A stretch of 64,000 nt of DNA from an uncultured Rikenella sp. (GTDB taxonomy: Bacteria > Bacteroidota > Bacteroidia > Bacteroidales > VadinHA17), in NCBI GenBank assembly GCA_964488645.1, contig CAZAVK010000006.1, positions 18,548 through 82,547 of the forward strand, read 5' to 3'. The translations under genes were made by a program, and so were the position numbers. The stretch's first letter is position 1. Each line of letters opens with the position of its first letter. A model generated the notes under the pieces. The model searched no databases, was not told where the DNA came from, and saw only the letters and a program-made list of their open reading frames with translations. Below are positions 36,823 through 47,109 of the stretch, piece by piece.

Positions 36823-38022
36823 ATGGAAAAACTGAATCTCTTTTTTACGCGCATACAGGAGTCGGGTTTCTGGCAGAGGCTTTTCAGGTGGAAGAGGCTC
36901 AGGAGCCTCTCCTGGGAGGCGATGGAGGAGTACCGTGCCATGCTGCGTGATATGGCAGCACAGAAGGAGAGTAATGAGAGCCTCCGTAACCGTGTCACCG
37001 AGCTCACCGCCGGCAGTGAGCACCTGGGTCAGCGCCTCCGGGACCTGGAGCTGCAGGCCGCACAGCGGGAGGCCCGTATGGAGGAGCTGAATGGCAGGCT
37101 GAGGGAGCAGGCCGGCACCATCAACGAGCTGACTCGCAAGGTATCAGCCTTTGAGGCGGTGAAGGACGAAAAAGAGAGGGCATTCAATGAGAATATCGCC
37201 AGGCTGAACCAGACCAAGGATAGCTTTGAGGCAGAGCGCCGCAGGCTGCACGAGGAGCAGCTGCGGCAGGCCGGGGAGAGGCTCGAGGCAATGAAACGGC
37301 AGTGGGCCGGGCATGAGGCCGACGTGAAGAGTGCAATCACCCGCATCTGCGATCTCAATCAGGTGCGATATATCGAGAAGGTCCCCTTCCGGGGAAACCC
37401 TGACAACACCATCGAGATCAGCGGCGAATACATCATTTTCGATGCAAAGAGCCCGGCGGGGGATGACCTCACCAACTTCCCCGGCTACATAAAGACACAG
37501 GCAGACCAGCTGAAGAAATATGCCAGCCAGGAGAGCGTCAAGAAGTCGATGTTCCTGGTGGTACCCACAAACACCATAGAGAGCATCAGGCAGCTCACCT
37601 ACCGGCTGGGCGACTATGATGTCTTCGTGATAACCAAGGATGCCCTCGAACCGGTGATACTATCGCTCAAGAAGATAGAGGAGTATGACCTGGCCGACAA
37701 GCTGAGCCCCGAAGACCGTGACTCCATCTGCCGCATCATCGGGAAGTTCGCGCATACAGCCAAGCGGCGCATACAGGTAGACCAGTTCTTTTCGGAGGAG
37801 TTTATTGACATAGTGTTGCGTAGCCAGAAGGATCTGCCGGATGACATAAAGCAGCAGGTCATCGAGTTCGAGAAGTCGGAAAAGCTCAACCCCCCGACCG
37901 AGCGGCGCGCCAAGATCATCTCCATAGATGAGCTGCAGAAGAAGAGCGACGAGATAGGGGCTGAGGTGCAGTCACCAAAACTATCCCTCCCGGGAACGGA
38001 GGAGGAAAAGCAGGTCAGATGA
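36823..38022 (+). CDS. Coiled-coil protein with RmuC-like PD-(D/E)XK nuclease-fold domain
   Basis: Long heptad region followed by NPD...IIFDAKSP; LK.Y and FLVVP resemble RmuC segments. Confidence 0.6.
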   Translation: MEKLNLFFTRIQESGFWQRLFRWKRLRSLSWEAMEEYRAMLRDMAAQKESNESLRNRVTELTAGSEHLGQRLRDLELQAAQREARMEELNGRLREQAGTINELTRKVSAFEAVKDEKERAFNENIARLNQTKDSFEAERRRLHEEQLRQAGERLEAMKRQWAGHEADVKSAITRICDLNQVRYIEKVPFRGNPDNTIEISGEYIIFDAKSPAGDDLTNFPGYIKTQADQLKKYASQESVKKSMFLVVPTNTIESIRQLTYRLGDYDVFVITKDALEPVILSLKKIEEYDLADKLSPEDRDSICRIIGKFAHTAKRRIQVDQFFSEEFIDIVLRSQKDLPDDIKQQVIEFEKSEKLNPPTERRAKIISIDELQKKSDEIGAEVQSPKLSLPGTEEEKQVR

Positions 38023-39242
38023 AGGCGAAGGGAAGGGAGACCAAACCGCATGTGGGCATCTTCGGCAGGCGTAATGTCGGGAAGAGCTCACTCATAAATG
38101 CTATTGTGGGTCAGGAGATAGCCATTGTCTCCGATGTGGCGGGTACCACCACTGACCCGGTGAAGAAGAGCATCGAGATTCACGGGCTGGGACCGCTCAT
38201 ACTGATCGATACCGGGGGGATTGACGATGAGGGGGGATTGGGTGAGCTGCGCATCGGGAAGGCGCTCGCCTCGGTGAGGCTGGTAGACATGGCCATACTG
38301 GTGCTGGCTGACAACACCTTCGGAGAGCATGAGGCGATGCTGGCCGATGAATTCAGAAAAGCCGACGTACCCTATCTGATTGTGCACAACAAGAGTGACC
38401 TCACGCCCCCATCGGATGAGCTGCGCGAGAGGGTCAGGAGGCTCACCGGCAGGGAGGTGGTCACCTACTCAGCCCTTGACCCGGCAGGCTACAATCCGGC
38501 CCTCATAAGTATGATGAAGGAGATCATGCCCGCCTCGGCACTGAAGGGGCGCAGCCTGATCGGCGATCTCATTCAGCCGGGTGACATGGTGCTGCTGATC
38601 ACCCCTGTCGATGCCGGCGCCCCGGCAGGGAGGCTCATCCTGCCCCAGGTGCAGGTCATACGTGACATACTTGACAACAACTGCACCGCCATCGTGCTCA
38701 AGGAGACAGAGGCGGCGGCATTCCTGCAGCACAGCAGTATCAGACCAGCACTGGTGATCACCGACAGCCAGATCTTCGCTGCGGCAGACGCGATAGTGCC
38801 GGACGATATTCCGCTCACCAGCTTCAGCATAGTACTGGCACGGCAGAAGGGCGACTTCGAAGAGTACCTCCGGGGAACGCCGAAGATCGGCGGACTGAAG
38901 GATGGTGACCGGATACTGATGCTGGAGTCATGTACCCACAATGTCTCATGTGATGATATCGGCCGGGTGAAGATACCGCGCTGGCTGAGGGAACATACCG
39001 GCAAGAAGCTTGAGTTCGATACCGTGGCCGGGCTTGACGGCATACCACGCCCCATAGAGGAGTATGCCCTGGTCATACAGTGCGGCGGCTGCATGGTGAC
39101 CCACCGCCAGCTGATGAACAGGCTCAGCGAGCCGAAGAGTCATGGCATACCGGTGACCAACTACGGAATGGTCATCGCATGGGTACACGGCATCTTCAAC
39201 CGCGCCACCGCACCGTTTACCGGAGGAAATCACCCCCGGTAG
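38019..39242 (+). CDS. hydF: [FeFe]-hydrogenase H-cluster maturation GTPase HydF
   Basis: GRRNVGKSS, GTTTDPV, DTGG and NKSD; cluster ligands ESCTH and QCGGC; TNYG. Confidence 0.95.
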   Translation: MKAKGRETKPHVGIFGRRNVGKSSLINAIVGQEIAIVSDVAGTTTDPVKKSIEIHGLGPLILIDTGGIDDEGGLGELRIGKALASVRLVDMAILVLADNTFGEHEAMLADEFRKADVPYLIVHNKSDLTPPSDELRERVRRLTGREVVTYSALDPAGYNPALISMMKEIMPASALKGRSLIGDLIQPGDMVLLITPVDAGAPAGRLILPQVQVIRDILDNNCTAIVLKETEAAAFLQHSSIRPALVITDSQIFAAADAIVPDDIPLTSFSIVLARQKGDFEEYLRGTPKIGGLKDGDRILMLESCTHNVSCDDIGRVKIPRWLREHTGKKLEFDTVAGLDGIPRPIEEYALVIQCGGCMVTHRQLMNRLSEPKSHGIPVTNYGMVIAWVHGIFNRATAPFTGGNHPR

Positions 39243-41373: not shown

Positions 41374-41381
41374 TATATTTG
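41374..41381 (+). promoter_or_regulatory. Bacteroidota -7 promoter element for the hutH-like leader
   Basis: tatatttg matches TAnnTTTG. Confidence 0.55.
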
Positions 41382-41398
41382 AACTCTGCTACAGTATT

Positions 41399-41461
41399 AT
41401 GGGACGAAACTGGACCCTGGAATACAAGATCAAGATCAACCGCTCAGGGTTGTATCGCTAG
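41399..41461 (+). CDS. Putative 20-aa leader peptide (MGRNWTLEYKIKINRSGLYR)
   Basis: ATG to TAG, lying between a promoter match and a terminator-like hairpin. Confidence 0.35.
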   Translation: MGRNWTLEYKIKINRSGLYR

Positions 41462-41471
41462 CCTTTCCGGC

Positions 41472-41520
41472 CGGCGGATGTCTTTGTACCTCCGCCCTCT
41501 TTTGATTTTCCCTTTTTTAC
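41472..41520 (+). terminator. Terminator-like hairpin in the hutH-like leader
   Basis: ggcgga...tccgcc stem followed by the T-rich ctcttttgattttcccttttt. Confidence 0.45.
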
Positions 41521-41550: not shown

Positions 41551-43083
41551 ATGGATACATTAATTATCAACGGATCAGGACTGACAGTAAATGATGTTGT
41601 CAATGTGGCCCGCTATGGCCAGAAGATAGAGCTTCACCCCGACGCCCGCAAGCGGATCCTCGAGTGCCGTGCGATGCTTGAGAAGAAGATCGATGCCCGT
41701 GAGATCATGTACGGGGTCAACACCGGTATAGGTGAGTTTTCGGAGATAGTACTTGATGATGATCAGATCAAGGATTTCCAGAAATACCTCGTTTACAACC
41801 ATGCCGCCGGCATAGGTGACCCTGCTCCCATTGAGGTTGTCCGCGGCGCCATGCTGGGTCGCATCAATGTGCATGCTCATGGCAACTCGGGCTGCCGCCT
41901 TGAGATAACCGAGACCTACGTTGAGATGCTCAACAAGGGTGTCACCCCCTACTCATGCCAGAAGGGGTCTGTGGGCGCCTGCGGTGACCTGTCGCCCATG
42001 TCACAGATTGCCCTTCTCCTTATGGGTGAGGGGAAGGCCTACTACAAGGGTGAGTTGCTCGACGGCGCCGAGGCGATGAAGCGGGCAGGGATAAAGATTC
42101 CCGGACTGCAGGCACGTGACGGGCTGGCAGCCATCAACGGTTCCAACATGCTCACCGCCATGAGCGCCCTCTGGCTGGTCGATGCCAACAACTGGCTCAA
42201 GCAGGCCGAGATAGCCGCATCGATGTCGCTCGAAGCACTCAAGGCCAACATGAGACCCTACGAGCCGCTGCTGCATGAGGCACGCGGGTTCAGGGGGGCC
42301 ATCCGCAGCGCTGCGGCAATCAACAAGTGTATCGCGGGCGGTGACCTCAAGGAGGGACGTATCAAGTCAAAGGTGCAGGACGCCTACTCGATGAGATCAA
42401 CCCCGCAGGTGATAGGCGCTGCACACGATATGCTGGCCTATGCACGCAGCCAGGTGGAGATCGAACTCAATGGCGTGGGTGACAACCCGATCTTCTTCCC
42501 CGACAGGAACCTGCAGCTCTCAGGCGCAAACTTCCAGGGCTCGCCGGTGAGCGTGCCGATGGATATGGCCGGAGCAGCAATAACCATGGTTTCGGTAATG
42601 TCTGAGCGCAGGATGAACCGCCTCAACAACCCGGCACTGAGCGTGGGGCTGCCGGCATTCCTGACAAAGGGAGCAGGCATGTTCTCAGGACTGATGCTGA
42701 GCCAGTATACCGCCGACATGATGATAGTGGAGCAGCGGATTCTCTCGATGCCGGCATCAATACAGTCAATACCGGCTGCGGCAGACCAGGAGGACTTTGT
42801 CTCTATGGGGATGAACACGGCCATCAAGAATAACCAGATCCTTGACAATGCCTACGGAATACTCGGGATTGAGTTCATGGCGGCAGCACAGGCACTCGAC
42901 TTCAGGAAGAAGGAGTACAGCTTCGGGAAAGGGGTCCAGAAGGCCAAGGATGTGATCCGCAGGCATGTGGAATTCCTCGATATTGACCGCCCGCTCTACG
43001 CAGACCATACCACCATGAAAGAGCTGGTGAAGTCATGCGAGATACTCAATGAGGTCGAAAAAGAGGTGGGAAGCCTGGAGTAG
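41551..43083 (+). CDS. hutH: Histidine ammonia-lyase (MIO family) with an Ala-Cys-Gly cofactor tripeptide
   Basis: MYGVNTG, NHAAG, GSVGACGD, NG, QDAYSMR and QED. Confidence 0.85.
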   Translation: MDTLIINGSGLTVNDVVNVARYGQKIELHPDARKRILECRAMLEKKIDAREIMYGVNTGIGEFSEIVLDDDQIKDFQKYLVYNHAAGIGDPAPIEVVRGAMLGRINVHAHGNSGCRLEITETYVEMLNKGVTPYSCQKGSVGACGDLSPMSQIALLLMGEGKAYYKGELLDGAEAMKRAGIKIPGLQARDGLAAINGSNMLTAMSALWLVDANNWLKQAEIAASMSLEALKANMRPYEPLLHEARGFRGAIRSAAAINKCIAGGDLKEGRIKSKVQDAYSMRSTPQVIGAAHDMLAYARSQVEIELNGVGDNPIFFPDRNLQLSGANFQGSPVSVPMDMAGAAITMVSVMSERRMNRLNNPALSVGLPAFLTKGAGMFSGLMLSQYTADMMIVEQRILSMPASIQSIPAAADQEDFVSMGMNTAIKNNQILDNAYGILGIEFMAAAQALDFRKKEYSFGKGVQKAKDVIRRHVEFLDIDRPLYADHTTMKELVKSCEILNEVEKEVGSLE

Positions 43084-43160: not shown

Positions 43161-43204
43161 CACCTCCCCGCAGGCCGGCAGGCCTGTGCGGGGAGGTGTT
43201 TTTT
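43161..43204 (+). terminator. Intrinsic terminator
   Basis: cacctccccgcaggcc-ggca-ggcctgtgcgggaggtg followed by a T run. Confidence 0.85.
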
Positions 43205-44601: not shown

Positions 44602-47109
44602 ATGACCAGGAAGATATTTGCCGCACTCCTAACCTGCCTGATACCAATTGCCGCTGCAGGCCAATCCCCTGACCTCCTGAAATATGTCAATCCGTTTATC
44701 GGCACAGACAGGATGGGGCACACCTACCCGGGTGCAACCGTCCCGTTCGGAATGGTTCAGCTCTCCCCCGACACTGACACCCTGCCCTATGCGGTCGGGG
44801 GGCAGTACAACAGGGATGTATACAGATACTGTGCAGGATACCAGTACTCCGATCCCACCATTGTCGGCTTCTCGCATACCCATTTCAGCGGTACCGGCCA
44901 CTCTGACCTGGGCGACATACTGCTTATGCCGCTTACCGGCACTCTTCACCTGAACCCGGGAACTGCAGATGCACCGGAGAGTGGCTACCGCTCACGTTTC
45001 TCGCATGAGAACGAGAAGGCTTCGCCCGGCTACTACTCGGTACTGTTAGATGACTACGACATAGTGGCCGAGCTGACTGCAACCACCCGTACCGGCGTGC
45101 ACCGCTACACCTTCAACCGAGGTGGCGATGCACATCTTGTGCTTGACATGGTTCATGGTATCTACAATGATGAGGGAAAGAATGTATGGACCTTCCTCAG
45201 GGTTGAGAATGACACCCTTGTCACCGGCTTCCGGCTGACCAGCGGGTGGGCCCGCACCCGGTCGCTCTTCTTTGCCATCGCCTTCTCAAAGCCTTTCAGC
45301 TCGTACGGCTTCCGTGACGACTCGCCGCCCCGCACCTATCGCGGCTTCTGGCGCCGGTTTGACCAGCGCACCAACTTCCCTGAAGCGGCAGGAAGGGCTA
45401 TCAGGGGCCATTTTGATTTCCAGGTTGATAACGGTGAGCAGATCACGGTGAGGGTAGCCCTCTCGCCTGTAAGCACCGCCGGGGCGGTGGCAAATATGAT
45501 AGCTGAGGCACCCGCGGCCGACTTCGACCTGGTACGGAGGAGGGCTGAGGAGATGTGGCGTGGTGAGCTGGAAAGGGTGAAGGTGGAGATGATGAACGAT
45601 GATCAGATGACCAGCTTCTATACATCACTCTATCACACTCTCATTTCGCCTACGGTATACATGGATACCGACGGCAGCTACCGTGGACTCGATCAGAATA
45701 TCCACAGGGCAACAGGGTTCACCAACTACACCACCTTCTCCCTCTGGGACACCTACCGGGCGCTGCATCCGCTCTTCACCATCATTCAGCAACGGCGCAC
45801 GGCAGACATGATCAACTCGATGCTGGCACACTATGACCAGAGCGTACACAACATGCTTCCCGTATGGTCACACCATGCAAACGAGAACTGGTGCATGATC
45901 GGCTACCACGCGGTGCCGGTGATCGCCGACGCCATAGTGAAGAACATTGAGGGCTTTGACCACGTCAGGGCGCTGGAGGCATGTGTAACCACCGCACGCA
46001 ACGGCTGGTATGACGGGCTTGATGACTATATGAGCCTCGGCTATGTGCCCGATGACCGCACCGCCTCTTCGGTCTCGGTTACCCTTGAGTATGCCTTTGA
46101 TGACTGGAGTATTGCACAGGCAGCCCGCAGGCTGCAGCAGGGCCGGCAGGAGCCGGCGGGTAATGTGACTACCCCGGGGCTGCAGCAGGGCCGGCAGGGA
46201 ATAGCGGGCGAAGAGTCTGACCCGGGACTCCAGCAGAGCCGGCCGGAGAGAGCGGGCGAACAGTCTGCCTCAGGGCTCCGGCAAAGCCGACCGGAGATAG
46301 CAGGCGAACTGTCTGCCTCAGGGCTCCGGCAAAGCCGGCCGGAACCGGCAGGGGAAGCCTGGTACGGGGAGATCCATGATGAATTCATCAGCCGCTCACG
46401 GAACTTCCTGAATGTGTGGGATTCCTCAACGGGATTCATGCGGCCCCGCGGCAGGGACGGCAGCTTCAGGGAGGATTTTGATGTGCTCTCCACTCACGGA
46501 CAGGGCTTCATCGAGGGCAATGCCTGGAACTACAGTCTCTATGTACCGCATGATCCGGCTGAACTGATAGCCCTGCACGGCGGGAAAAAGCGCTTCACCA
46601 CACACCTCGACTCCCTCTTTACCATGTATCTCCCTGACAGTTTCTTCGCCGAGACCGAGGATATCACCCGGGAAGGAATCATCGGCAACTATGTACATGG
46701 CAATGAGCCCTCTCACCATGTGCCCTACCTCTACAACCATGCCGGTGCACCCGGGAAAACCCAGTACCGGGTGAGGTATATCATGGATCACAAGTACCTG
46801 CCTGCCCCTGACGGACTGAGCGGCAATGATGACTGCGGTCAGATGAGTGCATGGTACATCTTCAGCGCACTGGGCTTCTACCCCGTTGCTCCGGGATCAG
46901 ACCGCTATGACCTGGGCAGCCCCCTGGTGAAGGAGGCAGCCATAAGTCTAGAGAATGGAAATAGATTCACGGTGAAGACAGTGAATCAGGGGCCACGGAA
47001 TGTCCGTGTGCGCAGGGTGGAGCTCAACGGTGCCAGGCTTGACCGGCTGTGGATAACGCATGACGAAATCATGCAGGGCGGTACCCTAACATTCTATATG
47101 ACCCGGTAA
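44602..47109 (+). CDS. GH92 alpha-mannosidase with internal repeat insertion
   Basis: VNPFIGT, PGATVPFGMVQLSPD, FSLWDTYR, TLEYAFDD, EGNAW, GNEP and GNDDCGQMSAWY. Confidence 0.95.
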   Translation: MTRKIFAALLTCLIPIAAAGQSPDLLKYVNPFIGTDRMGHTYPGATVPFGMVQLSPDTDTLPYAVGGQYNRDVYRYCAGYQYSDPTIVGFSHTHFSGTGHSDLGDILLMPLTGTLHLNPGTADAPESGYRSRFSHENEKASPGYYSVLLDDYDIVAELTATTRTGVHRYTFNRGGDAHLVLDMVHGIYNDEGKNVWTFLRVENDTLVTGFRLTSGWARTRSLFFAIAFSKPFSSYGFRDDSPPRTYRGFWRRFDQRTNFPEAAGRAIRGHFDFQVDNGEQITVRVALSPVSTAGAVANMIAEAPAADFDLVRRRAEEMWRGELERVKVEMMNDDQMTSFYTSLYHTLISPTVYMDTDGSYRGLDQNIHRATGFTNYTTFSLWDTYRALHPLFTIIQQRRTADMINSMLAHYDQSVHNMLPVWSHHANENWCMIGYHAVPVIADAIVKNIEGFDHVRALEACVTTARNGWYDGLDDYMSLGYVPDDRTASSVSVTLEYAFDDWSIAQAARRLQQGRQEPAGNVTTPGLQQGRQGIAGEESDPGLQQSRPERAGEQSASGLRQSRPEIAGELSASGLRQSRPEPAGEAWYGEIHDEFISRSRNFLNVWDSSTGFMRPRGRDGSFREDFDVLSTHGQGFIEGNAWNYSLYVPHDPAELIALHGGKKRFTTHLDSLFTMYLPDSFFAETEDITREGIIGNYVHGNEPSHHVPYLYNHAGAPGKTQYRVRYIMDHKYLPAPDGLSGNDDCGQMSAWYIFSALGFYPVAPGSDRYDLGSPLVKEAAISLENGNRFTVKTVNQGPRNVRVRRVELNGARLDRLWITHDEIMQGGTLTFYMTR
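46132..46356 (+). repeat. In-frame 48-bp repeat (about 4.7 copies; 16-aa unit LxQxRxExAGE..sG)
   Basis: Units start at 46132, 46180, 46228, 46276 and 46324. Confidence 0.92.

Follow-up and report, generated by a model that had tools for sequence, protein, structure and literature searches.

A divergent HutH-like ammonia-lyase with a likely cysteine-derived MIO and a conserved candidate leader peptide in Bacteroidales

The MIO-family ammonia-lyase encoded in the 64,000 nt stretch of DNA from an uncultured Rikenella sp. analysed here (the window) is most likely the histidine ammonia-lyase (HAL, HutH) of its own cell, belonging to a divergent clade and making its MIO from cysteine with loss of H2S. 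A conserved leader of 20 predicted codons, which in Bacteroidales precedes hutH genes of this clade as well as canonical ones, is the new element here. The features of the locus are as follows.

41374..41381, + strand: Bacteroidota-type -7 promoter element TATATTTG, fitting TAnnTTTG (from sequence)
41399..41461, + strand: leader uORF MGRNWTLEYKIKINRSGLYR, 20 aa, candidate hutL stall peptide (from conservation)
41473..41516, + strand: GC hairpin with arms 41473-41478 and 41491-41496 and a U-rich tail, in the gap between leader and lyase (from folding, z only -1.6)
41551..43083, + strand: MIO-family ammonia-lyase of 510 aa from a divergent 'Asn-His' clade, most likely HutH
41977..41985, + strand: MIO precursor triad Ala143-Cys144-Gly145, codons GCC TGC GGT (from sequence and alignment)
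43161..43204, + strand: intrinsic terminator 3′ of the lyase (from folding)

The upstream neighbour of the lyase is a divergently oriented S9 peptidase gene, and the terminator combines a long GC stem with six T (-34 kcal/mol, z -2.9). The original prediction had described the gene as monocistronic and without hut neighbours; indeed no hutU, hutI or hutG is adjacent, but the conserved 20-codon leader ORF precedes the lyase. Further away, the window encodes the [FeFe]-hydrogenase maturation GTPase HydF (38019-39242, + strand), which is found upstream in synteny in 10 close relatives with no evident functional link, and a GH92-like alpha-mannosidase ORF (44602-47109, + strand). The latter contains about five imperfect internal peptide repeats of the GLQQGRQ / SGLRQSRPE type (46040-46330), possibly DNA repeats inserted in frame.

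The lyase is a clear member of PF00221 (524 bits against a gathering cut-off of 27.3) and scores best on the hutH models, in both cases below the cut-off (TIGR01225, 496.4 bits against 539.15; PRK09367, 520.2 against 524). Scores on the TAL, PAL and aminomutase models are lower and all below their cut-offs (FlxA 309/700, TIGR01226 209/519, TIGR03832 351/501, TIGR04475 339/800). The X-Ser-Gly precursor triad of the superfamily is absent and Ala-Cys-Gly (ACG) stands in its place; as originally read, the codons at 41977-41985 encode A143-C144-G145, which aligns with A142-S143-G144 of Pseudomonas putida HAL. The AF2 model (pLDDT 94.5) has the all-helical HAL/PAL fold, with P. putida HAL 1b8f as the best Foldseek match (TM 0.93). 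The HAL catalytic set through which catalysis would proceed is kept (Y54, H84, N196, Q276, Y279, R282, F328, M382 and E414, the counterparts of Y53, H83, N195, Q277, Y280, R283, F329, M382 and E414 in P. putida), and the catalytic residues are invariant in 274 clade proteins, part of which had been selected on GANFQG and NGVGDNP. For HAL, the roles of Y53, H83, N195, Q277, Y280, R283, F329 and E414 have been tested experimentally, and Ser-His is the substrate-switch dyad (PMC11432326). Here the dyad is Asn83-His84, with Asn in 273 of the 274 clade members, so the claim that the His-type selectivity position is kept holds for His84 and fails for its dyad partner. The motifs NHAAG, GANFQ and QEDF are all present as claimed, and clade-wide pocket changes (F76, Y82, E62, Q329, F416) are invariant across the clade. 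The clade is tight: identity to the lyase is at least 74% and then drops across a gap to at most 40%, the nearest canonical HALs lying at ~40%.

The genome from which the window stems, a Bacteroidales relative assembled to 95% completeness, contains exactly one PF00221 member, which is this lyase, while hutU, hutI and ftcD are present on another contig. Its urocanase is a plain HutU that passes TIGR01228 and fails both thiourocanate hydratase models, which led us to reject a thiourocanate/ergothioneine pathway. A hisD gene was not found in the 95%-complete assembly, and the organism is probably a histidine auxotroph with a full hut pathway. In the same genome there was no HutC over the cut-off and no HutP, and control by either regulator was rejected. 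Four congeneric MAGs (90-98% complete) possess hutU and no detected lyase, for which assembly gaps could be the cause.

Judged by gene content and neighbourhood, the clade behaves as HutH, Cys members included, because it co-occurs with urocanase and, in archaea, shows mutual exclusivity with canonical-like HAL and adjacency to hutU. Among 201 Bacteroidales genomes of at least 93% completeness, about one or two per family and not fully independent, hutU was found in 68/70 clade carriers and in 25/26 genomes with the clade as the only HAL-family member, compared with a urocanase in 1/42 genomes in which no HAL-family member was found; clade carriers almost always have a single urocanase match. 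The archaeal sample comprised 81 genomes, likewise not fully independent, from the class to which a Thermoplasmatales MAG belongs; 75 carry a HAL-family member, nearly always one. The clade occurs in 28 of these genomes, the remaining carriers have a canonical-like HAL, and only 2 have both. Urocanase is present in all 28 clade carriers and in none of the six lyase-less genomes, and 19 of 25 archaeal clade loci abut hutU (22 of 25 are ACG). The clade would stand in for canonical HutH, and the lyase of the window would convert L-His to trans-urocanate and NH3, thereby committing histidine to a hut pathway whose genes are scattered. Since the clade shows this HutH-like behaviour but scores below the equivalog cut-off and lacks the Ser-His dyad, 'divergent HAL clade' describes it best.

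In 80 clade neighbourhoods, the recurring neighbours were hisS (20/80), canonical hutH (17/80, in tandem with the clade gene) and genes of lineage synteny; a conserved partner gene from another pathway was sought and none recurred. The gene that we take to be hisS immediately precedes the lyase or the tandem of canonical hutH and clade gene (among loci L040-L085), and in 12 loci hisS accompanies an ACG lyase without a canonical hutH.

Several points speak against the HAL reading: the score below the TIGR01225 cut-off, the Asn-His dyad and the clade-wide pocket changes; the tandems with canonical hutH, which go beyond pure redundancy; and the four congeners with hutU in which no lyase was found. 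The tandems, together with two archaeal genomes that carry both lyases and in which hutU adjoins the canonical copy (G342, G357), make some difference in kinetics or side substrate between the clade and canonical hutH plausible. A rival reading is a lyase of broader or shifted range that feeds urocanase from histidine and owes its selective value to a histidine derivative (N-methyl-His, His amide or a peptide) or to different kinetics. Such an enzyme would explain the retention beside canonical hutH; the position of hutU in the two archaea and the invariance of the altered pocket residues also speak for it, and a HAL that uses N-tau-methylhistidine is on record, at least as cited in PMC11432326. 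We nevertheless regard it as unlikely, given that carriers almost always have a single urocanase, which in the genome studied here is plain HutU, that histidine itself is the obvious flux in sole-copy genomes, and that the neighbourhoods show no recurring dedicated partner gene.

The original prediction had gone further and raised a substrate other than histidine, which now appears very improbable. For Phe, Tyr, Trp or another substrate, the hut genes would have to be fed some other way; the non-canonical motifs that had suggested this are common to the Ser members and so are not tied to Cys, and the genome of the window has hutU, hutI and ftcD and no other HAL. The four congeners without a detected lyase would suit such a reading, as would an ACG relative of 56% identity located before an adenylate-forming enzyme gene, which hints at other uses at the edge of the clade, but the distribution of urocanase (25/26 against 1/42), the archaeal complementarity with canonical HutH and adjacency to hutU, the leader common to the clade and canonical hutH, and TAL, PAL and TAM scores below the hutH score all argue against it. 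The preferred reading remains a divergent HAL.

The MIO site of this HAL clade is occupied by Ser in 164 and by Cys in 110 of 274 distinct proteins, with no other residue. ACG is therefore common rather than rare in the clade, an eventuality that the original prediction had allowed for. The lyase and its 120 closest proteins (84-91% identity) comprise 27 ACG and 94 ASG sequences, and NHAAG, GANFQG and QEDF are common to all of them, Ser and Cys alike; a link between Cys and the altered pocket was rejected on this basis. Cys is found at 42 of 80 independent GTDB loci, where the codons at the MIO site are TGC (28), TGT (14), TCN (23) and AGY (15). A sequencing error was also rejected, as the 110 Cys homologues use both TGC and TGT and the lyase falls in a starred all-Cys group of 20 rows in the tree. 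Phylogenetic mapping, which had been proposed as a check, revealed Ser and Cys interspersed, with 16 (93 rows) to 23 (274 rows) changes on the best trees, which were built with the MIO site masked and in which many branches are weak; eight independent Ser/Cys pairs lie on well-supported branches. No alignment column tracked Cys in tree-aware pairs (274 proteins; 8 supported pairs, low power), and a compensating substitution was rejected at that power. Within the clade, TCN-Ser, AGY-Ser and TGY-Cys are all represented at the MIO site, so Cys may link the two sets of serine codons; the canonical hutH neighbours have TCN in 33/35 cases.

Outside the clade, ACG was present in 7 of 139 distant representatives, including a canonical-looking HAL and one adjoining urocanase genes. 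At L145 (5001-7858), the gene of the distant ACG relative of 56% identity (P0123) follows ABC/FtsX genes and overlaps the start of the gene for the adenylate-forming enzyme, an arrangement suggesting that it was recruited into a biosynthetic cluster. At L354 (3457-6536), two overlapping lyase genes follow urocanase and two amidohydrolases and are themselves followed by an ABC transporter; the second lyase is ACG (P0188) and belongs to a separate ACG lineage.

Beta-elimination to dehydroalanine is open to two residues, Ser and Cys, so formation of the same MIO through loss of H2S is the simplest reading. The Gly145 amide would attack the Ala143 carbonyl and the ring would lose water, after which Cys144 would undergo beta-elimination of H2S in place of H2O. 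The mature MIO should be chemically identical to that made from Ser (a total of -52 Da vs -36 Da for ASG), and for this reason Ser and Cys are expected to be close to interchangeable. A natural Cys-derived MIO, as originally predicted, is likely in the lyase, considering that the site holds only Ser or Cys in 274 proteins, that switches were repeated and that the catalytic residues are invariant. That Cys members form no MIO, being inactive or MIO-independent as ergothionase is, can hardly be credited even though ergothionase 6s7j fits the model just as well (TM 0.94), since the site is restricted to the two residues capable of beta-elimination, Cys members often accompany hutU as the only lyase, synonymous TGC/TGT variation indicates long persistence, and all MIO-forming and catalytic residues are kept.

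The leader upstream of the lyase has the core W-x-L-x-F/Y-x-I-x-I/V-N-R-x-G/A-L (with the columns I, N and R preset in the search pattern), is the only copy in its genome and is present in 20/20 close relatives. All 74 distinct cores lie upstream of HAL-family genes (61 clade, 13 canonical), and they use all six Arg and all six Leu codons, pointing to selection on the peptide. With a degenerate pattern we obtained 37 matches in the 201 Bacteroidales genomes, compared with one for the reversed control, and by coordinates 33 of the 37 were directly upstream of a HAL-family gene (24 clade, 9 canonical-like). An unbiased metagenome scan gave 119 matches, of which 85 form a short ORF; 76 of these ORFs precede a HAL-family gene (71 clade, 5 canonical-type), eight are at contig ends and one has no HAL-family gene after it. 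How far the stop lies from the conserved core is variable, at 3-12 codons after NR. The leader had no match in Pfam, NCBIfam or Rfam, none was found before hutU, hutI or ftcD, and in a search beyond Bacteroidales a looser pattern applied to 300 genomes of the phylum returned only chance-like matches. That canonical hutH genes have this leader too adds to the case that the lyase is a HAL. The pattern was also matched by the beginning of a longer protein, WYLEYEIQVNRPGLL (loci L232, L242, L245, L274, L281 and others), which we take to be a Firmicutes YmfK-like ACT-domain protein in which an NRPGL loop presumably binds amino acids; the likeness of this loop to INRSGL of the leader may be chance.

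The motif TAnnTTTG, the Bacteroidota -7 promoter consensus, was found within 60 nt upstream of the ATG in 108/140 leaders versus 9/138 control windows, mostly at ~26 nt. The predicted translated leader is the first ORF after this promoter, is conserved as a peptide and stands before a catabolic gene. Following the leader, the GC hairpin with its U-rich tail (41473-41516) is a possible attenuator terminator. In 16 close relatives it displays 12 double-sided changes, reached in 1/500 shuffles, with the structure derived from the same sequences; a hairpin of -8 kcal/mol or better follows only 38/74 leaders, and RNAalifold gave only a weak alternative pairing of the leader 3′ end with the 5′ arm of the hairpin (-1 kcal/mol), on which we place no weight. 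A classical starvation-type hisL attenuator was rejected, as the leaders have no His run (among 124 distinct leaders, 83 have no His codon, 40 have one and one has two) and no Rfam match.

The leader is instead a candidate histidine-sensing stall peptide, and TnaC-type ligand-induced stalling is the mechanism that we prefer in our analysis. Transcription would run from the promoter through the translated 20-aa leader into the lyase gene, an order of events that is less secure than the enzyme part; the nascent leader probably causes ribosome stalling at high levels of histidine or a related metabolite, permitting read-through into the lyase. Gating the committed step of histidine breakdown would make sense, as the organism is a probable histidine auxotroph. 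In its full form, our proposal is that the nascent leader arrests the ribosome on sensing free histidine or urocanate in the exit tunnel and, acting instead of HutC or HutP, turns on a Bacteroidales HAL with a Cys-made MIO; we advance it tentatively, as a possibility that falls somewhat short of probable.

The enzyme part of these results is a modest advance, and the conserved hutH leader is the more valuable lead. The Cys triad implies that nature tolerates a substitution of the 'invariant' MIO serine by a residue from which the same cofactor arises, and the clade appears to supply the HutH that had been missing from many uncultured anaerobes and archaea, where annotation cut-offs under-call it. 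To our knowledge, few metabolite-sensing nascent peptides have been described, and we found none for histidine; our literature search likewise returned no paper on a hutH leader peptide. The leader is short, conserved and directly testable, and has the appearance of an on/off switch, undescribed so far, for the breakdown of histidine.

With respect to the triad, a 2022 review restricts variation to the first position (PMC9002059). Our literature search found no paper pairing 'Ala-Cys-Gly' or S143C with an ammonia-lyase. Nevertheless, a survey of MIO-forming residues by Brack et al. (2024) reportedly lists ACG among natural non-canonical triads together with new HALs, and has thus probably anticipated the natural ACG triad. 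The engineered P. putida HAL S143C of Langer et al. (1994), which is said to mature to active enzyme, has the same Ala-Cys-Gly precursor, whereas the Cys seen here occurs naturally and widely and has been gained or lost repeatedly. Compared with HutH (EC 4.3.1.3; P. putida 1b8f/1gkm, Thermoplasma acidophilum 7tqr; TIGR01225), the lyase has in common the fold (TM 0.93), the catalytic Y, H, N, Q, Y, R, F, M and E, and the co-occurrence with hutU, hutI and ftcD. It differs in its identity of 33-34%, the ACG triad, the score below the equivalog cut-off, Asn-His for Ser-His, and the motifs GIGEFSE, NGSN, GANFQ and QEDF. For the leader, the closest parallels are the ligand-sensing arrest peptides TnaC (tnaC-tnaA) and SpeFL of E. 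coli. Unlike these, the leader has an unrelated sequence and a variable distance from core to stop, its stalling and ligand are putative, and it was found only in Bacteroidales among the genomes searched. Otherwise the organization resembles that of the two E. coli systems: a short ORF, conserved as a peptide, containing a conserved Trp and lacking a run of cognate codons, precedes an amino-acid catabolic gene.
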